A stretch of 46,481 nt of DNA from a virus (taxonomy: Duplodnaviria > Heunggongvirae > Uroviricota > Caudoviricetes): the IMG/VR virus record IMGVR_UViG_648861009_000008. The stretch is one strand, 5' to 3'. The stretch's first letter is position 1, and each line of letters starts with the position of its first letter. Position numbers and translations under genes: made by a program. Positions 7,529 through 44,842 of the stretch are shown here, piece after piece. Under the pieces are notes generated by a model. It saw nothing but the letters and a program-made list of their open reading frames with translations, was not told where the DNA came from and did not search any database.

Positions 7529-9891
<2,363 letters not shown>

Positions 9892-10730
9892 NNNNNNNNN
9901 NNNNNNNNNNNNNNNNNNNNNNNNNNNNNNNNNNNNNNNNNNNNNNNNNNNNNNNNNNNNNNNNNNNNNNNNNNNNNNNNNNNNNNNNNNNNNNNNNNNN
10001 NNNNNNNNNNNNNNNNNNNNNNNNNNNNNNNNNNNNNNNNNNNNNNNNNNNNNNNNNNNNNNNNNNNNNNNNNNNNNNNNNNNNNNNNNNNNNNNNNNNN
10101 NNNNNNNNNNNNNNNNNNNNNNNNNNNNNNNNNNNNNNNNNNNNNNNNNNNNNNNNNNNNNNNNNNNNNNNNNNNNNNNNNNNNNNNNNNNNNNNNNNNN
10201 NNNNNNNNNNNNNNNNNNNNNNNNNNNNNNNNNNNNNNNNNNNNNNNNNNNNNNNNNNNNNNNNNNNNNNNNNNNNNNNNNNNNNNNNNNNNNNNNNNNN
10301 NNNNNNNNNNNNNNNNNNNNNNNNNNNNNNNNNNNNNNNNNNNNNNNNNNNNNNNNNNNNNNNNNNNNNNNNNNNNNNNNNNNNNNNNNNNNNNNNNNNN
10401 NNNNNNNNNNNNNNNNNNNNNNNNNNNNNNNNNNNNNNNNNNNNNNNNNNNNNNNNNNNNNNNNNNNNNNNNNNNNNNNNNNNNNNNNNNNNNNNNNNNN
10501 NNNNNNNNNNNNNNNNNNNNNNNNNNNNNNNNNNNNNNNNNNNNNNNNNNNNNNNNNNNNNNNNNNNNNNNNNNNNNNNNNNNNNNNNNNNNNNNNNNNN
10601 NNNNNNNNNNNNNNNNNNNNNNNNNNNNNNNNNNNNNNNNNNNNNNNNNNNNNNNNNNNNNNNNNNNNNNNNNNNNNNNNNNNNNNNNNNNNNNNNNNNN
10701 NNNNNNNNNNNNNNNNNNNNNNNNNNNNNN
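9892..10730. other. assembly gap (839 N) hiding the 5' end of J, genes K and I, and the 3' end of L
   Basis: Run of N; flanking ORFs are J (C-terminal part) and L (N-terminal part). Confidence 0.95.
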
Positions 10731-11372
10731 AAACTTACAGCCGCTCAGGCATTTGCTGCATTTATCCTTCGTGATATCGGACGTCGGCTGATCATATTCA
10801 TCCGCGACCGCCGGACCGTGATAACCGCACTCGTCACCGCGATAGGTCCAGGTGCAGGTGTTGGCCAGCATGATGCGCCCCGGAAAAACGGCACCGTCCG
10901 TTTCCGTCGGCGTGGACAGTACAAAAGAGGCACTCACCGCGCTCAGTTCGCTGCACTGCTCGATGCGCCAGCGGCTGATCACCTCCTGCTCAGGATCGGC
11001 GTCACTGTTTCCGTTGACGAAGTTCACCGCATCCAGAAAACGGGCGTAAACCTTACGCCTGACCACCGTTCCGCCGACCAGACTCTGCAGATCTTCCGCC
11101 ATCCCGGTGACCATGCCGTGCAGGTTAGAAACCGTCAGTGTCGGACGGGCAGCACTGCCCTTGCCATTCAGTTCAAATCCCGTCCCCTGAATGGGGTATG
11201 CCTGATACTGCCGCCCCTGCCAGGTAACCGGCTCACCTTTTTCGTTCTGCTCATTACAGAAAAAATAACGTTCACCACCGACCTCTGTCAGATCGATTTC
11301 CCAGAGCACCACCTGGGCTGACTGAGTGAGGCGTGTCGTCTCATGATGTGTTTCCTGTGGAATATCCTGCAT
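10731..11372 (-). CDS. L: minor tail protein L (3' end in gap)
   Basis: MQDIPQETHHETTRLTQSAQVVLWEIDLTEVGGERYFFCNEQNEKGEPVTWQGRQYQ... closely matches lambda L as recalled; runs into the N-run. Confidence 0.85.
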
Positions 11373-11381
11373 CAGAGCCTC

Positions 11382-11711
11382 CTATGCCACGACCTGTTCA
11401 AAATCTGCCGTTATGGTTACCCACAACGCCCCCACGCTTGCCGACCATTTACGACAAACCACCCTGATCGGCTTCCAGTCATAAGGTGGCGTCCACTGAA
11501 ATGCGCGGACGCCACCGTGCCGTTCCAGAAAGGCTTTTAAAGATGGGTGTTCACATTTACGAACACGTATCGTCACGCTGTAAGTCGACAACTGGTTATT
11601 CAGTCCCGCCGCACGACGCTGTTCATAACCATCGCCAAGCTTCACTGTCACCACTTTCGGCTCTGATACCACATTCATATCCGGGCGCACTTTCCAGTGA
11701 AACGTCTCCAT
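11382..11711 (-). CDS. M: minor tail protein M
   Basis: 109 aa, same length as lambda M, with ...GDGYEQRRAAGLN...FQWTPPYDWKPIRVVCRKWS... motifs. Confidence 0.85.
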   Translation of the reverse strand: METFHWKVRPDMNVVSEPKVVTVKLGDGYEQRRAAGLNNQLSTYSVTIRVRKCEHPSLKAFLERHGGVRAFQWTPPYDWKPIRVVCRKWSASVGALWVTITADFEQVVA

Positions 11712-12562
11712 TACCGATATGCTCCACTTAACCGACCACCATCACGGGCCTGCTGTTGCATAAAGTCCGCTGCCGCTTTTTTCCCGAGGTCATAAACCGC
11801 CTTCAGGGCAGCCGGACCTATCTGCCCGTTCGTGCCATCGTTATTGATCTCGATGTTGTACTGCGGGGAAAACATCGCCATACCTGAACCCCCAATATCC
11901 GCCACAACCCCCAGCTTACCGTCAGCACCACGACGCAATGGCAGAATGGCTTCAGGTCCCGCTTCCCCCATCACACCCGCGCCTTTTGCAAAAGCAAAAA
12001 ACGTCGGACGGTTAACCACCGTGCCACTGTAACGACTCAAATCAGCAGACTGATAAATCCCCCCATTGGCATTCAGGGAAAGGCTGCTGAGATCAAATCC
12101 CAGCACACTGCCAATCCCTTTTATCGATTTCATCATGGTTGCCTGCGCCAGGATTTTCGCCATATCTGACAGCACAGAAGAGGTGAAGGATTTGAAATTG
12201 AGTTTGCCGGTAGTGACAAAAGTTGCCAGGCCATTTCCCATGTTGCTGAAGGCTGACGAGAACACCTGTTCTGCTGTTCCTGCCGTATTATCTGCATCCA
12301 CGGTAAAATCCTGAAATGCACGCAGGACTCCGTTTTTCCAGTTACCCTGCACAACTTCAAGCTGTTGCCAGTAACGGCGATTCTCATTCAGTTGTCGGTT
12401 CAGGCTCTCCGTCAGCGCCTGCTCGGCCTTTCTGTAGTCATCCGTGTTATATGTTCCTTTCTGCTCACTATCCCGCCTCAACTGCTCCAGCTGTTGCTGG
12501 TATTTCTGGCGAAGACTCAGTTGTACCTGATATCGCTGCCGCTGCTGATCACCCATACCCAC
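11711..12562 (-). CDS. H: tail tape-measure protein, C-terminal segment (different frame from the N-terminal segment)
   Basis: 283-aa ORF directly downstream of the 726-aa tape-measure ORF; the two join if one A is added to an A6 run at 12637..12642. Confidence 0.7.
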   Translation of the reverse strand: MGMGDQQRQRYQVQLSLRQKYQQQLEQLRRDSEQKGTYNTDDYRKAEQALTESLNRQLNENRRYWQQLEVVQGNWKNGVLRAFQDFTVDADNTAGTAEQVFSSAFSNMGNGLATFVTTGKLNFKSFTSSVLSDMAKILAQATMMKSIKGIGSVLGFDLSSLSLNANGGIYQSADLSRYSGTVVNRPTFFAFAKGAGVMGEAGPEAILPLRRGADGKLGVVADIGGSGMAMFSPQYNIEINNDGTNGQIGPAALKAVYDLGKKAAADFMQQQARDGGRLSGAYR

Positions 12563-12624
12563 CGTGGCGATATCCAGGTCATGTTGCTGACGCTGAGCGC
12601 GCTCTTCTTCAGCCAGTTGACTGG

Positions 12625-14805
12625 TCAGCTGAATTGTTTTTTCTTCAGCTCGTTGAGTGCCGTCTGTTTCTGAAGCTCCTGCTGTTTTACATCCAGCAGC
12701 GTCAGTGCCTGAATCAGTTCATCTTTACGGGCCAGCACACTCTTTTCATCTGCCGTCAGTTTTTTCCCGTCCAGGTCGCTGATGCGCTGCTGCAGAGCCA
12801 GAAGCTGTTTATGCGCTTCTGTCATCCTTTCCGTGGCAATGCCTGCTGACTGTCTGGCAGCAGCAATCTGTCCTTCCACCTGTGCCTGTTGCTGACTGTA
12901 CTGCAGCAATAACCGGGTGGCCTCATCATTACGGGGTTCGCGTGTTTTTTTCTTACCGGATGCCAGGGCTTTCTCGTAACGTTCATTTTCACGTTGTATC
13001 GCTGCATCCCTGACAGCCTGATCGGCGTACTGCATGGAATTAATACGCGCAATTTCACGCTGATGTCGTGCTGCTTCCGTTTCATTCATCCGGTTCAGTG
13101 CAGCATTTTCAGCATTACGTCGTTTCTGTTGCTCCTGATAATTCCGCTCTGCCTGCTCTTTTGCATCCTGCAAATCCTTCTGGCGTTTTTTCTCCTGAAG
13201 ATCGTTAAGACGCTGCTGATCGTATTCAACCTGAGAAGATGATGCCGTCCAGGGGAGTCTTTTCGCCCGCGACACTTTCTCCTGTAAAGCGGCAATCTGT
13301 TCATCCAGCGAGTCTTCACGACCAATATTCATGGCCGCATCCCAGAAACGACTCCACAAATCAGACAGATACTTCAGCGTACTGCCAAGCGCATTGAGGT
13401 TATTATCAATATCCGCAGTACGCCGACCGGTTTCCTCTGCCAGTGCAGACATGGCTATCCGTGCAGCATCACTGGACCGTCCCTGATCCCCAAGGACACG
13501 TATCTGCTCAAGCTGAGTGGCAGTAAGAAAATGCAGCTCATTGTCCAGAGCCTTCGCGGCATTTACAGGATCATCCTTCAGCCGCTTAAACTGATTTATG
13601 GTATCGCTGACCGACTGGCCAACCGATCGCTCCATCTGTGCGGCAGCTCTCGCCACCATACCGATATCGTTTCCACGAAATGCACCACTCCCCACCACCT
13701 GAGCCAGCGCACCGGCTGCAGCATGTTGCGTGATACCATTCCCGGAAATAGCACGACTGAGCGTCCACAGCTGCCCGGCAGTGACTCCGGCATAATGCCC
13801 CGTCAGCGACAACTGGCGGTTAAATTCTTCCCCCTCCTTCTGACCGTCATACCAGGCTTTACCCAGACCATAGACGGACGCGGCAATACCGCCAATAACC
13901 CCGCCAAGCATCATGCCTTTCGGTGACATCAGAGTGTCTATCCATCCGGCACGGTTAGCCAGCGTTATCCCGGATCCCCTCAGCGCCCCTAAATTGCCGC
14001 GGGCCAGTTCACCTATCAGAACGCCAATCTCCTGGCGGGCCGCTGCACTTTTCAGACCCAGCGAATGCGTGGCTTTTCCTGCCTGCTCCATTTTGCGGAT
14101 ATACACTTCTGCAGCACTGCTTACCCCCAGCTGGGCAGCCTTAGCACGAAGCAACTCAGAAGAAGAAAGATTCTGGCGGGTTGCCTGCTCTTTAAGCTGA
14201 CGGATAAACGCCACTTTCTGTCGGGTAGCCTCTTCCTCAGCCTGCGTAAGAACACGGGTTTTCGCCGTAACCTCAGAAATCAGCGCCAGATAATCCTGCT
14301 GACCAATCCCGCCACTGTTTCTGGCCTGTCGGATCTGCTGCTGAATACGCTGTAATTCCTGCAGCCCCGCACTGGCCTGTTTCACACTGTCAATCTGACG
14401 ATAAAACGCGGCAGCCGCTTTATCCTGAGCCTCCGCCAGAGCCATGGCCTGCGCCTGTTCCTCGCGCATTTTCTGGCTCAGTGCCTCCATACGCTGGCGG
14501 GTTTGCTCCACCTCGCGGGCCATGCGTTCATGAGCCTGTGCGCTCTTCTCCACCGTCTGCGCATGGACGGATGCGGCTGTTGCAGCCGAAGAAGCCGCCT
14601 GCATTGTCTGCCGGGCGGCCTGAGTCTGACGCTCCATAAAACGCTGCATACGGGCAGAAGACCGTTCTGCATCGCTGGCTGCACCATTCAGAAGGTTTTT
14701 GATACGGGGAATTTCATTTTTAAACTCTGCCGCATCAATCCCCAAATCAATGACCAGGTTGGCTATCTGGTCCATAACGCACACCTCCGGAAATACCTTC
14801 CCCAA
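12625..14805 (-). CDS. H: tail tape-measure protein, N-terminal segment (726 aa, coiled-coil rich)
   Basis: Long helical Q/A/E/R-rich ORF between G/T and M, the lambda H position. Confidence 0.85.
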   Translation of the reverse strand: MGKVFPEVCVMDQIANLVIDLGIDAAEFKNEIPRIKNLLNGAASDAERSSARMQRFMERQTQAARQTMQAASSAATAASVHAQTVEKSAQAHERMAREVEQTRQRMEALSQKMREEQAQAMALAEAQDKAAAAFYRQIDSVKQASAGLQELQRIQQQIRQARNSGGIGQQDYLALISEVTAKTRVLTQAEEEATRQKVAFIRQLKEQATRQNLSSSELLRAKAAQLGVSSAAEVYIRKMEQAGKATHSLGLKSAAARQEIGVLIGELARGNLGALRGSGITLANRAGWIDTLMSPKGMMLGGVIGGIAASVYGLGKAWYDGQKEGEEFNRQLSLTGHYAGVTAGQLWTLSRAISGNGITQHAAAGALAQVVGSGAFRGNDIGMVARAAAQMERSVGQSVSDTINQFKRLKDDPVNAAKALDNELHFLTATQLEQIRVLGDQGRSSDAARIAMSALAEETGRRTADIDNNLNALGSTLKYLSDLWSRFWDAAMNIGREDSLDEQIAALQEKVSRAKRLPWTASSSQVEYDQQRLNDLQEKKRQKDLQDAKEQAERNYQEQQKRRNAENAALNRMNETEAARHQREIARINSMQYADQAVRDAAIQRENERYEKALASGKKKTREPRNDEATRLLLQYSQQQAQVEGQIAAARQSAGIATERMTEAHKQLLALQQRISDLDGKKLTADEKSVLARKDELIQALTLLDVKQQELQKQTALNELKKKQFS

Positions 14806-15513
14806 GATGCATCAGTTCTTCGTCCGTTCGCTCCGGTATCCCGTTCTCTTCCGGTAAAAGGCTGAAATCAGCCACCGCAGCATCACTGCTACCGGACACC
14901 ATTCTCACGATCAATGCCTTCAGCGAGGCAAACTGCGCATCCATCCACACATCACTGAAGCTCTGCATCCGGAAATAATCGCCCCACTCACCAAGCTCAG
15001 TGGCCGACATTTCCGACAGCATCCGCCGCCAGTCTGCCCGCCGGAACTCCCGGGCAAGCCGCATGACAAACTGCATTTCCCGCGTCAGGACTTTTCCGGC
15101 GTCAGCACCTCATGCTCCAAATCCCCGGCATTCTCAATGACTCCCATACCGCTCAGCGACAGAACCATCTCCGCCCCCGCTCCCAGGGCATCATACGACC
15201 ATGTTGTAATAACGGATGCGCAAAGCGTCTCAACATCCTGAGACTGTTCCGCATTCCACAGTGAGCGGGAAACCAGCCAGGCATTGATATCCATCCCCAT
15301 CCGCAGAAAAGCAATCTGTCGTTCAGCCTCCGGCAGTTCTCCCTCTTCGGCATCAAACTTTGCCGTTCGCTGCTGAACAAACGCCAGATATTCAATTCTC
15401 TGCAGCCCGGACAGCTCACTGAGCACCACGGACTGCTTTTCATAATTAAACGTGCCCTGTTTCAGAAACATCATGTTCTCCACCTGCAAAAAAGCCCCGG
15501 ATAACCGGGGCAA
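14747..15513 (-). CDS. T: tail assembly chaperone G-T fusion via programmed -1 frameshift near 15091..15097
   Basis: -1 frame is open from the end of G into the T ORF; heptamer G_GAA_AAG sits where lambda has G_GGA_AAG. Confidence 0.6.
15085..15513 (-). CDS. G: tail assembly chaperone G
   Basis: 142 aa with LSELSGLQRIEYLA motif like lambda G (LSELSALQRIEHLA). Confidence 0.85.
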   Translation of the reverse strand: MPRLSGAFLQVENMMFLKQGTFNYEKQSVVLSELSGLQRIEYLAFVQQRTAKFDAEEGELPEAERQIAFLRMGMDINAWLVSRSLWNAEQSQDVETLCASVITTWSYDALGAGAEMVLSLSGMGVIENAGDLEHEVLTPEKS

Positions 15514-19924: not shown

Positions 19925-21412
19925 TTATTCTTCGGACTGGTCGTCGGTGTGCTGCGGCTCCTGTCGTTTCGTTGCGGCACTGCTGCCTCCTTTATCACTG
20001 GCCGGATCGGTATCAAATACCAGATCCAGCTTGCGGTTTTCATCAATTTCGGCCTTGCGCCGACGTTTGACATCATCCGGATTACGACCACCTGCACGTA
20101 CCCAGTCTGATTCTGTCGCCGCTCCACCACGAATCTGAATTTTCCAGGCCTCAGCCTCCTTAACAGGGTCAATCCACGGCATCACCGGTCCGGAATACAC
20201 CGCGGTATACAGTGAAGAACGATCAAGATCGCGGGGTAGCCTGATAACACCGGATGCCACAGCCTGTTTCAGCCAGGCACGATACATCGGGCGGGTGACG
20301 GCACCAATAAACCAGTCCTGCAGGATCAGGTAGCCATCAGTGGATTCAACCAGCTCCTGACGCTGGGCGCTGTAAGTGCCGTTATAGTTGCGTGCCGTAC
20401 TGGAAAAACTCAGACGACTGCCCGCCGCCACGGCACGCAACTGACCATTACGAAAAGTTTCAAGGTTAGGATTGGGACGATCCGACTTCACCATTCCGAT
20501 TTCTTCGCCGGGTTTCAGATCGTCGTAAATAATGCCTGGCTGAATGGTAAGCTCGCGTTCATTCTCCTTGCTGCCATTACCATCCGGTTCATAGCTCTGC
20601 CCGTCGCCTTTCCGGATGTACATCCCCAGAGCAGCGGCGATCCTTGCTGCAGTCAGCTCAGAATCTTCATACTCTTTCAGGGCACTGAGGCGGATCAGCA
20701 CACCGGACAACAAAGACGTCCCGCGCATCTGGTGCAGACGGCGAACAAATTTAAGATGCAGCATTCGCTCTGCATCCACTTCTTTGGTTTCCATCTGCCG
20801 CCCGGATACGGGACGGCTTTTATACACCAGATATTTTTCGGGACGCCCCCAGTCATCAACAAACACGCCCTGATTCAGCCTGTTGCTCTCATCACTGGTC
20901 ATGGGAATAAAGTCCGGCTCGAGCGCCTCCAGCCAGAAATGAACACCGGCAGAAGGCGTCAGGCTGTTTATGCGCCCGGAAACCATCTGGGCAAACACCT
21001 CACCATCGCGCAGCCAGGTACGCAGCATCAGACGTTCCAGCATCGGACGGGTAAACTGCCCGGTGACTTCCGGACTGACAGACCATTCACTCCATCGGGT
21101 GCGTATCTCCGCTGCCAGATCACGGGCAATGGCCCCATTGCGTAATACCGGATGTGGCTCGACAATAATCCCGTTTTTCCCCACCACCCGTTCTTCCAGC
21201 TTGTCAAATACACCAATAACCAGATCGTGGTTGTTATCAAGGTAACGGGCCTGCTCACGTAACGACACGGCCCCGTACTGGCTTAACTGGTCGGCAGTTC
21301 GGTTTTCCCGCCGGGCTTTGTGTGTCCGTGTCGTTTTTACGGCCTCATAAGCCTGGATCACCGCACGGGAACGCAGCCTTGCCGCTTTCCATCCTGGTGA
21401 AAAAAACGCCAA
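19925..21412 (-). CDS. portal protein (lambda B-like)
   Basis: 495 aa between W and the protease/capsid gene; acidic C-terminus. Confidence 0.8.
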   Translation of the reverse strand: MAFFSPGWKAARLRSRAVIQAYEAVKTTRTHKARRENRTADQLSQYGAVSLREQARYLDNNHDLVIGVFDKLEERVVGKNGIIVEPHPVLRNGAIARDLAAEIRTRWSEWSVSPEVTGQFTRPMLERLMLRTWLRDGEVFAQMVSGRINSLTPSAGVHFWLEALEPDFIPMTSDESNRLNQGVFVDDWGRPEKYLVYKSRPVSGRQMETKEVDAERMLHLKFVRRLHQMRGTSLLSGVLIRLSALKEYEDSELTAARIAAALGMYIRKGDGQSYEPDGNGSKENERELTIQPGIIYDDLKPGEEIGMVKSDRPNPNLETFRNGQLRAVAAGSRLSFSSTARNYNGTYSAQRQELVESTDGYLILQDWFIGAVTRPMYRAWLKQAVASGVIRLPRDLDRSSLYTAVYSGPVMPWIDPVKEAEAWKIQIRGGAATESDWVRAGGRNPDDVKRRRKAEIDENRKLDLVFDTDPASDKGGSSAATKRQEPQHTDDQSEE

Positions 21413-21433
21413 TCACATCATCAAGAATTGCCA

Positions 21434-21652
21434 TCAGAACCTCGCCAGCCGGTACCCGGGATGCCCCCGTCGTCGTGTAATCAGAGCCGCAAGGCGGCGC
21501 TCCCACTCCTGCCGTCCCTGCCGGATCTCAGATAAGTTTTCCATGGTCATCTGCTGACCATTAAAGGTGACGGATTTTCCGTCCAGCACCGCCATTTCAG
21601 CTTCCGTATAACGCTGAATCATGGCTTCGATATCATTCTGGTTCATAACCAT
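21434..21652 (-). CDS. W: head-tail joining protein W
   Basis: 72 aa with ...TRRRGHPGYRLARF C-terminus resembling lambda W (...TQRRRGPAGFYV). Confidence 0.75.
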   Translation of the reverse strand: MVMNQNDIEAMIQRYTEAEMAVLDGKSVTFNGQQMTMENLSEIRQGRQEWERRLAALITRRRGHPGYRLARF

Positions 21653-25870: not shown

Positions 25871-26042
25871 TCAGATTAAATTAATCTTGACATCATAGCT
25901 TTCAAGACCCGTCATTTTTTCCCGTGCGGTAAACTGAATACTGGTAACTTCTTTCCCGGTCTTTTTCTTAAGTTCAATAATTTTTTTGTTATATATTCAG
26001 AAATATCTGCTTCTGCTTTTGTTTTAAGTTTTCAATATTCAT
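25871..26042 (-). pseudogene. gnsB: gnsB-like gene disrupted by two single-base deletions in T-runs
   Basis: Three consecutive frames give MNIENLK / QKAEADISEYITKK / IIELKKKTGKEVTSIQFTAREKMTGLESYDVKINLI, together collinear with GnsB as recalled. Confidence 0.55.
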
Positions 26043-33535: not shown

Positions 33536-34715
33536 NNNNNNNNNNNNNNNNNNNNNNNNNNNNNNNNNNNNNNNNNNNNNNNNNNNNNNNNNNNNNNNNN
33601 NNNNNNNNNNNNNNNNNNNNNNNNNNNNNNNNNNNNNNNNNNNNNNNNNNNNNNNNNNNNNNNNNNNNNNNNNNNNNNNNNNNNNNNNNNNNNNNNNNNN
33701 NNNNNNNNNNNNNNNNNNNNNNNNNNNNNNNNNNNNNNNNNNNNNNNNNNNNNNNNNNNNNNNNNNNNNNNNNNNNNNNNNNNNNNNNNNNNNNNNNNNN
33801 NNNNNNNNNNNNNNNNNNNNNNNNNNNNNNNNNNNNNNNNNNNNNNNNNNNNNNNNNNNNNNNNNNNNNNNNNNNNNNNNNNNNNNNNNNNNNNNNNNNN
33901 NNNNNNNNNNNNNNNNNNNNNNNNNNNNNNNNNNNNNNNNNNNNNNNNNNNNNNNNNNNNNNNNNNNNNNNNNNNNNNNNNNNNNNNNNNNNNNNNNNNN
34001 NNNNNNNNNNNNNNNNNNNNNNNNNNNNNNNNNNNNNNNNNNNNNNNNNNNNNNNNNNNNNNNNNNNNNNNNNNNNNNNNNNNNNNNNNNNNNNNNNNNN
34101 NNNNNNNNNNNNNNNNNNNNNNNNNNNNNNNNNNNNNNNNNNNNNNNNNNNNNNNNNNNNNNNNNNNNNNNNNNNNNNNNNNNNNNNNNNNNNNNNNNNN
34201 NNNNNNNNNNNNNNNNNNNNNNNNNNNNNNNNNNNNNNNNNNNNNNNNNNNNNNNNNNNNNNNNNNNNNNNNNNNNNNNNNNNNNNNNNNNNNNNNNNNN
34301 NNNNNNNNNNNNNNNNNNNNNNNNNNNNNNNNNNNNNNNNNNNNNNNNNNNNNNNNNNNNNNNNNNNNNNNNNNNNNNNNNNNNNNNNNNNNNNNNNNNN
34401 NNNNNNNNNNNNNNNNNNNNNNNNNNNNNNNNNNNNNNNNNNNNNNNNNNNNNNNNNNNNNNNNNNNNNNNNNNNNNNNNNNNNNNNNNNNNNNNNNNNN
34501 NNNNNNNNNNNNNNNNNNNNNNNNNNNNNNNNNNNNNNNNNNNNNNNNNNNNNNNNNNNNNNNNNNNNNNNNNNNNNNNNNNNNNNNNNNNNNNNNNNNN
34601 NNNNNNNNNNNNNNNNNNNNNNNNNNNNNNNNNNNNNNNNNNNNNNNNNNNNNNNNNNNNNNNNNNNNNNNNNNNNNNNNNNNNNNNNNNNNNNNNNNNN
34701 NNNNNNNNNNNNNNN
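33536..34715. other. assembly gap (1180 N) hiding the hok regulatory region and the left part of IS5
   Basis: Run of N between the hokD start and IS5 transposase C-terminal coding sequence. Confidence 0.95.
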
Positions 34716-35173
34716 GGGGCGCCACAGCGCGAGGAGCTGGCCGAGGTCGGATGTGGACTGGCTGATCGCCGAGCGACCCCGGCAACGGTAAGAACCTTGA
34801 AACAGCATCCACGCAAGAACAAAACGGCCATCAACATCGAATCCATGAAAGCCAGCATCCGGGCCAAGGTGGAGCACCCATTTCGCATCATCAAGCGACA
34901 GTTCGGCTTCGTGAAAGCCAGATACAAGGGGTTGCTGAAAAACGATAACCAACTGGCGATGTTATTCACGCTGGCCAACCTGTTTCGGGCGGACCAAATG
35001 ATACGTCAGTGGGAGAGATCTCACTAAAAACTGGGGATAACGCCTTAAATGGCGAAGAAACGGTCTAAATAGGCTGATTCAAGGCATTTACGGGAGAAAA
35101 AATCGGCTCAAACATGAAGAAATGAAATGACTGAGTCAGCCGAGAAGAATTTCCCCGCTTATTCGCACCTTCC
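34716..35173 (+). mobile_element. IS5, right-hand ~460 bp (rest in gap); terminal inverted repeat CTTATTCGCACCTTCC at 35158..35173, followed by CTAA
   Basis: Encodes the InsH C-terminus (...[45 protein letters not shown]...RQWERSH) and ends in the IS5 terminal repeat as recalled. Confidence 0.85.
34797..35027 (+). CDS. insH: IS5 transposase InsH, C-terminal fragment
   Basis: Translation matches the InsH C-terminus; the 80 nt between the gap and this ORF encode InsH-like sequence in shifting frames. Confidence 0.8.
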
Positions 35174-41871: not shown

Positions 41872-44262
41872 ATGAGTAAAGTCTTTATTTGCGCCGCTAT
41901 TCCTGACGAACTGGCAACAAGGGAAGAAGGCGCTGTGGCTGTAGCCACAGCCATTGAAGCTGGCGACGAACGCCGTGCTCGAGCAAAATTTCACTGGCAA
42001 TTCCTGGAACATTATCCGGCTGCTCAGGACTGCGCTTATAAATTTATTGTCTGCGAGGATAAACCTGGCATACCCCGCCCTGCCCTCGATTCATGGGATG
42101 CTGAATATATGCAGGAAAACCGCTGGGATGAGGAGTCTGCTTCTTTTGTCCCGGTTGAGACTGAATCCGATCCGATGAACGTCACTTTTGACAAGCTGGC
42201 CCCTGAAGTACAGAACGCTGTCATGGTTAAGTTCGACACATGTGAAAACATCACCGTTGATATGGTTATTAGCGCACAGGAATTGTTGCAGGAAGACATG
42301 GCAACATTCGACGGACATATCGTTGAAGCGTTGATGAAAATGCCAGAAGTTAACGCCATGTATCCGGAGCTTAAGTTGCACGCCATTGGGTGGGTTAAGC
42401 ATAAATGTATTCCTGGTGCTAAATGGCCCGAAATTCAGGCAGAGATGCGCATCTGGAAAAAACGTCGCGAAGGTGAACGCAAGGAAACCGGAAAATACAC
42501 GTCTGTTGTTGATCTCGCCCGCGCCAGAGCCAATCAACAGTACACTGAAAATTCAACAGGAAAAATCAGCCCGGTCATTGCTGCCATTCATCGCGAATAC
42601 AAGCAGACATGGAAAACACTGGATGACGAACTGGCCTACGCTCTCTGGCCTGGTGATGTGGATGCCGGAAACATTGACGGCAGCATCCATCGCTGGGCAA
42701 AAAATGAAGTTATCGATAACGACCGCGAAGACTGGAAGCGTATCTCGGCATCAATGCGCAAACAGCCTGATGCCCTTCGCTACGACCGCCAAACTATTTT
42801 TGGCCTTGTCCGTGAACGTCCGATCGACATTCACAAAGATCCCGTAGCACTGAACAAATATATCTGCGAATACCTGACGACAAAGGGCGTGTTTGAGAAT
42901 GAAGAAACAGACCTGGGCACTGTTGATGTTCTCCAGTCATCAGAAACACAAACTGATGCAGTGGAAACTGAGGTATCTGATATCCCAAAAAATGAAACCG
43001 CGCCGGAAGCTGAACCATCTGTAGAGCGTGAGGGGCCGTTCTATTTCCTCTTCGCAGATAAGGACGGAGAAAAATACGGTCGCGCAAACAAACTTTCTGG
43101 TCTGGATAAGGCACTGGCTGCTGGCGCCACTGAAATCACAAAAGAAGAATATTTTGCCCGAAAAAATGGCACATACACGGGCTTACCGCAAAATGTAGAT
43201 ACCGCTGAAGATTCAGAACAACCAGAGCCGATAAAAGTTACCGCTGACGAAGTAAACAAAATTATGCAGGCAGCCAATATCATCCAGCCTGACGCCGATA
43301 AGTTGCTTGCTGCATCACGTGGTGAATTTGTTGAAGGGATTAGTGACCCGAATGATCCGAAATGGGTTAAGGGGATCCAGACCCGCGATTCTGTGAACCA
43401 GAACCAGCATGAATCGGAACGGAACTACCAAAAAGCGGAACAAAACAGCCCAAATGCGTTACAAAACGAGCCAGAAACGAAACAGCCTGAATCAGTGGCG
43501 CAACAGGAAGTGGAAAAAGTCTGCACCGCCTGCGGTCAGACCGGCGGCGGCAACTGCCCTGATTGTGGCGCGGTAATGGGCGACGCAACATACCAGGAAA
43601 CATTCGATGAAGAGTATCAGGTTGAAGTTCAGGAAGATGATCCGGAGAAAATGGAAGGCGCTGAACATCCACACAAGGAGAACACTGGCGGCAATCAGCA
43701 TCACGATAGCGATAATGAAACTGGCGAGACGGCAGATCACTCAATTAAGGTGAACGGTCATCACGAAATCACATCCACCAGCAGGACGTGTGACCATCTA
43801 ATGATCGACCTTGAAACCATGGGAAAAAATCCTGATGCCCCGATCATCTCAATAGGTGCAATATTTTTCGATCCGCAAACCGGAGATATGGGACCGGAAT
43901 TTATTAAGACTATCGATCTGGAAACTGCTGGCGGAGTCATTGATCGGGACACCATTAAATGGTGGTTTAAGCAATCACGCGAAGCGCAATCTGCCATTAT
44001 GACCGATGAAATCCCGTTAGATGATGCACTGTTACAATTGCGGGAATTTATCGACGAAAACTCCGGTGAATTTTTTGTTCAGGTCTGGGGAAATGGAGCC
44101 AACTTCGACAACACGATTTTGCGCCGTTCATACGAACGGCAGGGGATCCCCTGCCCGTGGCGTTACTACAACGATCGCGATGTACGCACAATCGTTGAGC
44201 TGGGGAAAGCCATAGACTTCGATGCCAGAACGGCTATTCAATTCGAAGGTGAGCGCCGATAA
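41872..44262 (+). CDS. large prophage protein with C-terminal DnaQ-like DEDDh 3'-5' exonuclease domain; C-terminus truncated here by indels at a contig end, true end probably at 44842
   Basis: Exo motifs MIDLETMG, WGNGANFDNTIL and (in the second copy) HNALDDARYQ; lambda exo position in the pL operon. Confidence 0.8.
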   Translation: MSKVFICAAIPDELATREEGAVAVATAIEAGDERRARAKFHWQFLEHYPAAQDCAYKFIVCEDKPGIPRPALDSWDAEYMQENRWDEESASFVPVETESDPMNVTFDKLAPEVQNAVMVKFDTCENITVDMVISAQELLQEDMATFDGHIVEALMKMPEVNAMYPELKLHAIGWVKHKCIPGAKWPEIQAEMRIWKKRREGERKETGKYTSVVDLARARANQQYTENSTGKISPVIAAIHREYKQTWKTLDDELAYALWPGDVDAGNIDGSIHRWAKNEVIDNDREDWKRISASMRKQPDALRYDRQTIFGLVRERPIDIHKDPVALNKYICEYLTTKGVFENEETDLGTVDVLQSSETQTDAVETEVSDIPKNETAPEAEPSVEREGPFYFLFADKDGEKYGRANKLSGLDKALAAGATEITKEEYFARKNGTYTGLPQNVDTAEDSEQPEPIKVTADEVNKIMQAANIIQPDADKLLAASRGEFVEGISDPNDPKWVKGIQTRDSVNQNQHESERNYQKAEQNSPNALQNEPETKQPESVAQQEVEKVCTACGQTGGGNCPDCGAVMGDATYQETFDEEYQVEVQEDDPEKMEGAEHPHKENTGGNQHHDSDNETGETADHSIKVNGHHEITSTSRTCDHLMIDLETMGKNPDAPIISIGAIFFDPQTGDMGPEFIKTIDLETAGGVIDRDTIKWWFKQSREAQSAIMTDEIPLDDALLQLREFIDENSGEFFVQVWGNGANFDNTILRRSYERQGIPCPWRYYNDRDVRTIVELGKAIDFDARTAIQFEGERR

Positions 44263-44299
44263 TGCACTTGATGACGCCGTTACCAGGCAAAATACGTTT

Positions 44300-44351
44300 N
44301 NNNNNNNNNNNNNNNNNNNNNNNNNNNNNNNNNNNNNNNNNNNNNNNNNNN
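44300..44351. other. assembly gap (52 N) between two overlapping copies of the same ~445-bp sequence
   Basis: 43851..44299 and 44352..44798 are near-identical apart from single-base indels. Confidence 0.9.
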
Positions 44352-44356
44352 AATAG

Positions 44357-44842
44357 GTGCAATATTTTTCGATCCGCAAACCGGAGATATGGACCGAATT
44401 TATTAAGACTATCGATCTGGAAACTGCTGGCGGAGTCATTGATCGGGACACCATTAAATGGTGGTTTAAGCAATCACGCGAAGCGCAATCTGCCATTATG
44501 ACCGATGAAATCCCGTTAGATGATGCACTGTTACAATTGCGGGAATTTATCGACGAAAACTCCGGTGAATTTTTTGTTCAGGTCTGGGGAAATGGAGCCA
44601 ACTTCGACAACACGATTTTGCGCCGTTCATACGAACGGCAGGGGATCCCCTGCCCGTGGCGTTACTACAACGATCGCGATGTACGCACAATCGTTGAGCT
44701 GGGGAAAGCCATAGACTTCGATGCCAGAACGGCTATTCAATTCGAAGGTGAGCGCCATAATGCACTTGATGACGCCCGTTACCAGGCAAAATACGTTTCA
44801 GTTATCTGGCAAAAACTGATCCCGAGTCAGGCTGATTCTTAA
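44357..44842 (+). CDS. exonuclease C-terminal segment (second copy; carries the true 3' end of the gene)
   Basis: 161-aa ORF repeating ...EFIKTIDLETAGGVIDRDTIKWW... and continuing ...HNALDDARYQAKYVSVIWQKLIPSQADS. Confidence 0.6.
   Translation: MQYFSIRKPEIWTEFIKTIDLETAGGVIDRDTIKWWFKQSREAQSAIMTDEIPLDDALLQLREFIDENSGEFFVQVWGNGANFDNTILRRSYERQGIPCPWRYYNDRDVRTIVELGKAIDFDARTAIQFEGERHNALDDARYQAKYVSVIWQKLIPSQADS

Follow-up and report, generated by a model that had tools for sequence, protein, structure and literature searches.

A one-base change in an A run splits the tape-measure gene of a Qin-site lambdoid prophage record and is probably a homopolymer sequencing error

Introduction

The closest described counterparts of the gene studied here are the tape-measure genes of mEp460-like phages and Qin-type prophages (AFM76050.1 of mEp460; WP_000372011.1 of E. 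coli), which share with it the gene order G, T, tape measure, M, L. In the phages mEp460, mEp460_ev081, Ayreon, Tritos and cdtI, the tape measure is encoded by a single gene of 3066 nt between T and an M-like gene. Changes of reading frame are not foreign to this tail module: the G/T tail chaperone genes reportedly contain a programmed −1 frameshift, a finding attributed to Xu, Hendrix and Duda (2004; cited in PMC3711429).

Frameshifts of another kind are introduced when sequences are read. Singleton frameshifts whose two halves match one intact homolog have been assigned to sequencing errors rather than to genuine indels (Antonov et al. 2013, PMC3711429). Here we describe such a break in the tape-measure gene of the IMG/VR record IMGVR_UViG_648861009_000008, whose whole stretch of 46,481 nucleotides is called the window below. 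The gene is whole in all good-quality relatives, whereas in the window it is no longer a single uninterrupted ORF.

Results

A truncated ydfJ lies at one end of the window and an integrase gene at the other. Many E. coli genomes have a complete lambdoid prophage in the Qin site (ydfJ ... rspB), with which the whole window is collinear. As far as the sequence tells, it is a Qin-site lambdoid prophage of apparently intact type that falls into the mEp460 / cdtI phage group. In the tape-measure region its DNA is 98.4–99.1% identical to that of mEp460, mEp460_ev081, Ayreon and Tritos and 96% identical to that of cdtI. The gene occupies the expected place in the tail module, behind the G/T chaperone pair and ahead of M and L (Table 1). 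Its start is placed by homologs at ATG 14775, which gives a 29-nt overlap with the end of gene T, the same as in mEp460.

Table 1. Features of the tape-measure locus and sites bearing on the quality of the record (window coordinates; homopolymer differences are given from reference to window)
Feature	Position	Strand	Remark
Gene G	15085-15471		upstream neighbour in the tail module; G stop 15085-15087
Gene T	14747-15076		−1 frame relative to G; between G and tape measure
Tape-measure gene (lambda gpH type)	11711..14775	-	3065 nt here, 3066 nt in relatives
Upstream piece	12628..14775	-	716 aa from ATG 14775; TMP_2, TMP_4 and TIGR01541 positions 1-53
A6 run (T6 on plus strand)	12637..12642	-	A7 is the consensus in relatives; sole cause of the frame change
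Premature TGA	12625..12627	-	met in the shifted frame; residues Q-F-S replace T-I-Q
Downstream piece, −1 frame	11711..12636	-	remainder of TIGR01541 and Tape_meas_lam_C
M-like minor tail gene	11382-11711		directly after the tape-measure gene
Gene L	from 11372 downward, as far as the N gap		after the M-like gene
N run	9892-10730		839 N
N run	33536-34715		1180 N
N run	44300-44351		52 N
Homopolymer difference	12637		T7 to T6
Homopolymer difference	21400		A6 to A7
Homopolymer difference	25981		T8 to T7
Homopolymer difference	26022		T5 to T4
Homopolymer difference	26421		A8 to A7
Homopolymer difference	33285		A5 to A4
Homopolymer difference	40756		A7 to A6

Family models for lambda-type tape-measure proteins matched both pieces above their curated cut-offs. 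PF06791 (TMP_2) and PF24622 (TMP_4) scored 167.6 bits (cut-off 30.2) and 58.6 bits (cut-off 27), respectively, on the upstream piece, and PF09718 scored 81.1 bits (cut-off 23) on the piece in the −1 frame. The latter also matched positions 44-332 of the NCBIfam model TIGR01541, which has 332 positions (E = 4.5e-77, 259.4 bits, cut-off 104.75), while the first 53 positions of this model correspond to residues 656-708 of the upstream piece. One domain thus runs across the break, and the two pieces are therefore halves of one gene. Judged by sequence, this gene is an ordinary member of the lambda-type tape-measure family and adds nothing new to it.

On the minus strand the junction reads ...CTC AAC GAG CTG AAG AAA AAA CAA TTC AGC TGA. 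The cassette at the tape-measure A run is CTGAAGAAAAAACAATTC. Aligned with its relatives, the window differs at the junction only in the run, A6 here and A7 there (T7 to T6 on the plus strand), and the rest of the gene is unchanged with respect to near-identical prophages. The −1 frame stays open over 331 codons that reach from 12703 across the A run as far as 11711. With one A added, the gene gives a protein of 1021 aa followed by a stop, in which every residue is the same as in the protein of NZ_CP030768.

The preliminary description had proposed that a one-base change in an A run splits the tape-measure gene, and this holds, as do its positions for the A6 run and for the stop at 12625, ahead of which the upstream protein in the given frame ends ...LKKKQFS. 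Some of its dimensions need adjustment. The length of 726 aa for the upstream ORF (12625..14805 in the ORF list) applies from the TTG at 14805 and becomes 716 aa from the start supported by homologs. The 283-aa ORF (11711..12562, GTG start) is in another frame as proposed, with 62 nt rather than 60 nt from the stop to its GTG; the fusion of the pieces by one added A was also correct, and the product put at about 1020 aa has exactly 1021. The true coding frame of the downstream piece begins before GTG 12562, and the 283-aa ORF is only the part that can be called mechanically. A search for a Shine-Dalgarno motif in front of this GTG found none in the upstream sequence, CTGGATATCGCCACG.

The window was compared over about 43.5 kb with four independent complete genomes, whose isolates came from an unrecorded source in the US, from blood in the US, from a South African chicken and from Norwegian surface water. 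Only 0-3 substitutions were found over this length, with none against strain GN05505. At seven homopolymer sites, one of them the tape-measure run, all four references agree against the window by one base (Table 1), and six of the seven lie in coding sequence. The affected share grows with the length of the run: 0/507 4-mers, 2/172 5-mers, 1/64 6-mers, 2/13 7-mers and 2/4 8-mers. One of these sites breaks the essential portal gene in the same manner as the tape measure, with a stop at codon 30.

Moreover, the record disagrees with itself. The 52-N gap is flanked on each side by 449 bp (43851-44299 and 44352-44798) that represent the same single-copy exonuclease segment and are unmerged overlapping contig ends. 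The two copies differ by four one-base indels and by no substitution, and at each of the four sites the other copy agrees with the references. Since overlapping contig ends disagree by indels, one-base indel errors are directly demonstrated in this assembly. Furthermore, the IS5 end beside the second N gap carries three one-base insertions at most 70 nt from the contig end. Overall, the record presents what would be expected of sequencing error: change confined to run length, an excess of indels that rises with run length, and a gapped draft that is inconsistent with itself. The combination of contig breaks at repeats with homopolymer errors suggests flow-based short reads (454 or Ion Torrent).

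Other interpretations of these irregularities were considered and rejected. Neither a true tandem duplication at 43851-44798 nor a true deletion or fusion from J to L at 9892-10730 was accepted, as both are N-gap artefacts. A mutator lineage as the origin of the seven indels was discarded on account of the zero substitutions, the change in half of the 8-mers and the self-discordant contig ends; judging from the known spectra of mismatch-repair-deficient strains, their mutation pattern would not fit that of the window. As a separate observation, all ORFs called across N gaps, for example one of "514 aa" (9828..11372) and one of "784 aa" (7529..9883), are to be treated as artefacts.

The length of the A run was then compared with other data. 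The comparison with intact homologs that had been proposed as a check gave a uniform result: the five phages named above and the four complete E. coli genomes, where the tape measure is annotated as WP_000372011.1, all have A7 and one ORF of 1021 aa. A 321-base query across the run matched 1,857 complete-genome records, of which just one, NZ_CP025910, was an exact A6 match; the next 39 matches listed span 322 bases. This exception is itself rich in errors. In the 6.7 kb fetched from it, three of seven complete tail-gene CDSs (T, tape measure and K) are "frameshifted", and it differs by 11 indels from the reference prophage (L005). It is of a different lineage, with 98.3-98.9% identity. Complete ETEC genomes obtained with PacBio RS II have been published (PMC6446980); strain 204446 is not named in the main text of that paper, so its link to NZ_CP025910 is tentative. 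With an exact A6 in this one error-rich record among 1,857, the run does not present itself as a phase-variable locus.

A7 was found in 124 of the 126 fetched loci. More than 120 IMG/VR contigs contain the motif, and all that were fetched have A7, while a separate scan of IMG/VR returned one contig with A6, which belongs to a lineage sharing 96.5% identity with the window. At the protein level, a 1021-aa member of the WP_000372011.1 90% cluster is present on at least 1000 contigs, the exact 716-aa product on 5-7 and the 283-aa product on 24-42. The contigs with the 283-aa product are mostly read-archive (Logan) assemblies, many of them from the run series SRR30896xxx. In most of these assemblies the same 11 kb contain between one and four additional one-base indels, predominantly in homopolymer runs (the second A7 of the tape-measure gene and also a C4, a G6 and a G3), and only 0-2 substitutions relative to the reference; one of them has A8 at both A7 runs of the tape-measure gene. 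The indels failed the four-gamete test, with all four pairings present for several pairs of sites, and hence they recur independently and were not inherited on a tree. The tape-measure A run is a technical hotspot that can be demonstrated in these data.

A6 is the sole indel over 6.5-13.5 kb of otherwise identical or near-identical sequence in four further assemblies: SRR18061896, SRR30896311, ERR15941329 and the ENA metagenome scaffold ERZ28662077. SRR30896311 comes from a run series that shows 2-5 indels in this region in its other members, and its clean appearance may reflect the low tail of the error count.

Discussion

The preliminary description had left the choice between a real inactivating mutation and a homopolymer error. 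Both options still stand, and the evidence strongly favours the error. In our estimate the probability is about 0.88 that the A6 is a homopolymer recorded one base short by sequencing or assembly, so that the break is not biology. The real DNA would then read CTG AAG AAA AAA ACA ATT CAG, with A7 and one protein of 1021 aa that would serve as the tape measure fixing tail length, and the division into products of 716 aa and 283 aa would exist in the record alone. This preference follows from the gapped draft, the six additional homopolymer differences, the discordant contig ends and the miscalls at the same run elsewhere, which together lead us to infer that the tape-measure site itself is among the errors of the record. 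As a rough guide, the other 7-mers of the record are miscalled at a rate of about 8%, compared with an A6 frequency of at most 0.05-0.7% elsewhere, and such figures favour error by odds of very roughly 10:1 to 100:1.

A real mutation, in which replication slippage shortened A7 to A6 in this particular lysogen and left a fresh tape-measure pseudogene making no tails save by rare rescue, is unlikely in comparison. Homopolymer runs are natural hotspots of slippage (PMC3711429), and the tail genes of a prophage are under weak selection in the lysogen. Moreover, the four independent assemblies with A6 as their sole indel, and the A6 in the 96.5%-identical IMG/VR lineage, are what a genuine variant might leave behind; accurate short reads behind any one of these assemblies would make A6 a real allele of low frequency, which the strain of the window could carry. 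However, one of the four belongs to an error-prone run series, the single complete genome with A6 is error-rich, and the remaining differences of the window are technical in appearance, consisting of homopolymer indels without a single substitution against GN05505, of indels at contig ends and of overlaps that disagree. A bolder version, in which A6 is a recurrent low-frequency allele of this widespread E. coli prophage, with SRR18061896, ERR15941329 and ERZ28662077 as its examples, and the A7 tract a slippage-prone switch that turns tails off and by reversion on again, with a leaky A6 form, we regard as somewhat less likely still. Either a −1 slip of the P-site tRNA-Lys (at the second AAA) or the insertion of an additional A by RNA polymerase would give ...KKKTIQ..., which is exactly the wild-type sequence, so that slight leakiness would be expected of a real A6 allele. 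If A6 were real, the locus would be an ordinary young pseudogene in a prophage.

That the A run acts as a programmed site, by −1 ribosomal frameshifting or by transcriptional slippage, or that the 716-aa and 283-aa products are used separately, is highly improbable. The junction does sit on an A run, and tail modules do have a programmed −1 frameshift, though in the G/T chaperone genes upstream. Programmed ribosomal frameshifting is effectively refuted here: the phase of the run is G AAA AAA C and lacks an X XXY YYZ heptamer, folding of the 87 nt that follow is no better than that of shuffled sequences (z = +0.26), and the two-frame arrangement is not conserved, the relatives having A7 in frame. 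The same lack of conservation speaks against designed transcriptional slippage, for which the run is also too short, with 6 bases here and 7 in frame in relatives, as programmed transcriptional realignment typically requires runs of at least 8 (PMC3711429). Independent expression of the 283-aa ORF is likewise rejected, given a GTG without a Shine-Dalgarno motif and a single domain model that straddles the break. Separate expression of the two ORFs in related phages had been named as a finding that would speak against a broken gene, and no good-quality related phage or prophage has two genes in this place; the tape-measure split of vB_EcoS-606R10 sits elsewhere, in a partial genome.

With a homopolymer error as the preferred explanation, the consequences concern annotation. 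Anyone trusting the record as it stands would count this prophage as defective, with a split tape measure and a truncated portal. Spurious "proteins" of 716 aa and 283 aa would enter databases, and dozens of contigs already carry the 283-aa product. For the window as a whole, any frameshift at A/T runs of 5 or more bases should be distrusted.

Among known systems, lambda gpH (853 aa) shares with the window protein its role and its C-terminal family (PF09718 / TIGR01541), and it likewise follows the G/T chaperone pair. The window protein is longer, with 1021 aa, and differs in its N-terminal and central region (TMP_2, TMP_4); over 61 bases its gene matches lambda H with 92-93% identity, whereas most of the gene cannot be aligned with lambda H at the DNA level. 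The programmed frameshift of G/GT belongs to this tail module too and likewise involves an A-rich site of lysine codons. It is conserved across phages and is located upstream of the tape measure, whereas the break in the tape-measure gene has neither conservation nor a slippery heptamer nor a stimulator. Homopolymer-length artefacts are well known from draft assemblies, and the split falls into this class and offers nothing new in this respect. Artificial homopolymer frameshifts in draft and long-read assemblies are singletons with intact homologs spanning both pieces, as here; they come as many events per record, depend on run length and are accompanied by almost no substitutions, and on the evidence of the assembled sequence the case in the window is indistinguishable from them. 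The mEp460-like phages are 98.6-99.1% identical to the window in DNA. The nearest match of all is provided by the Qin-type prophages, whose copies of the gene are identical to that of the window at the DNA level save for one A, with a run of 7 there and 6 here, and whose WP_000372011.1 matches the repaired window protein in all 1021 residues.

Assembly gaps and contig ends

Three runs of N interrupt the window (see table), which therefore consists of four or more contigs joined in a scaffold. The first covers part of J, all of I and K, and part of L, with 839 N in the window versus 2447 bases in the reference genomes. Listed ORFs that span N runs, such as 9828..11372 ("514 aa") and 7529..9883 ("784 aa"), were rejected as artefacts. 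The third run is flanked on both sides by the same 449-bp segment of the exonuclease gene (43851-44299 and 44352-44798), which is a single-copy gene. This doubled segment represents overlapping contig ends that were left unmerged. Four one-base indels separate the two copies, namely those at 44258, 44277, 44393 and 44396, and there are no substitutions between them.

Positions of gaps and selected features in the window
Feature	Position	Length (bases)	Strand	Remark
N run 1	9892-10730	839
N run 2	33536-34715	1180
N run 3	44300-44351	52
Portal gene	19925-21434		minus	altered run at 21400-21406
G/T tail chaperone gene junction	15085-15102		minus
IS5 end	34716-35173			adjoins N run 2

The second gap is bordered by one end of an IS5 element, which implies that an IS5 copy has inserted into the interval from hokD to the DUF4209 gene. 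In the complete reference genomes NZ_CP030768 and GN05505 the prophage carries IS5 elsewhere: in NZ_CP030768 the element sits in dicB, and in GN05505 it separates the DUF977 gene from the DUF4209 gene. The last 70 nt before the contig end at this IS5 contain three one-base insertions.

One-base indels in homopolymer runs

Compared with all four reference genomes, the window also shows one-base homopolymer deletions at 25981, 26022, 26421, 33285 and 40756. Of these, gnsB contains two, ynfN one and the rem-hokD interval one; the remaining deletion falls in a hypothetical gene, whose 191-aa product is thereby cut to 170 aa. The 170-aa product is represented in NCBI by WP_000344959.1, from two contigs. 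The altered run in the portal gene reads A7 in the window and A6 in the four complete genomes; with A7, the gene is frameshifted and codon 30 becomes a stop. A second IMG/VR contig, IMGVR_UViG_2531839475_000006, also has this A7 and shows no other difference from the reference across 13.9 kb, and the run could be either an allele shared by the two records or a recurrent miscall.

In many Logan (read-archive) assemblies of the same prophage (L136-L143), the tape-measure and capsid genes have one-base indels that recur at a few common sites, mostly homopolymer runs (15499, 15806, 21228, 21063 and 20463 in the coordinates of the reference prophage). The combinations of these indels are mutually incompatible, and the recurrent sites therefore constitute a list of technical hotspots for this prophage that is ready for reuse.

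Relationship to other phages and prophages

A 238-base segment of the tape-measure gene (12804-13041) also occurs at 99.6% identity in the 254-kb record of Aeromonas phage AP1 (MT713136.1), in an unannotated stretch close to the record end (251326-251563). The presence of this E. coli prophage segment suggests that the AP1 record is contaminated or has a chimeric end.

The window (1-46481) is limited by a truncated ydfJ gene at one side and by the integrase gene end, adjoining rspB, at the other. The prophage is an apparently intact, full-length relative of the cryptic K-12 prophage Qin, with which it shares pinQ, tfaQ, cspI/B/F, gnsB, hokD, dicB, ydfD and other genes, and its head and tail module is mEp460-like. 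Gene G terminates with ACG CCG GAA AAG TCC TGA and T lies in the -1 frame; judging from this arrangement, the conserved programmed -1 frameshift of the tail module should therefore occur at the G/T junction. The putative frameshift site in the window is G GAA AAG, and that of lambda is G GGA AAG.
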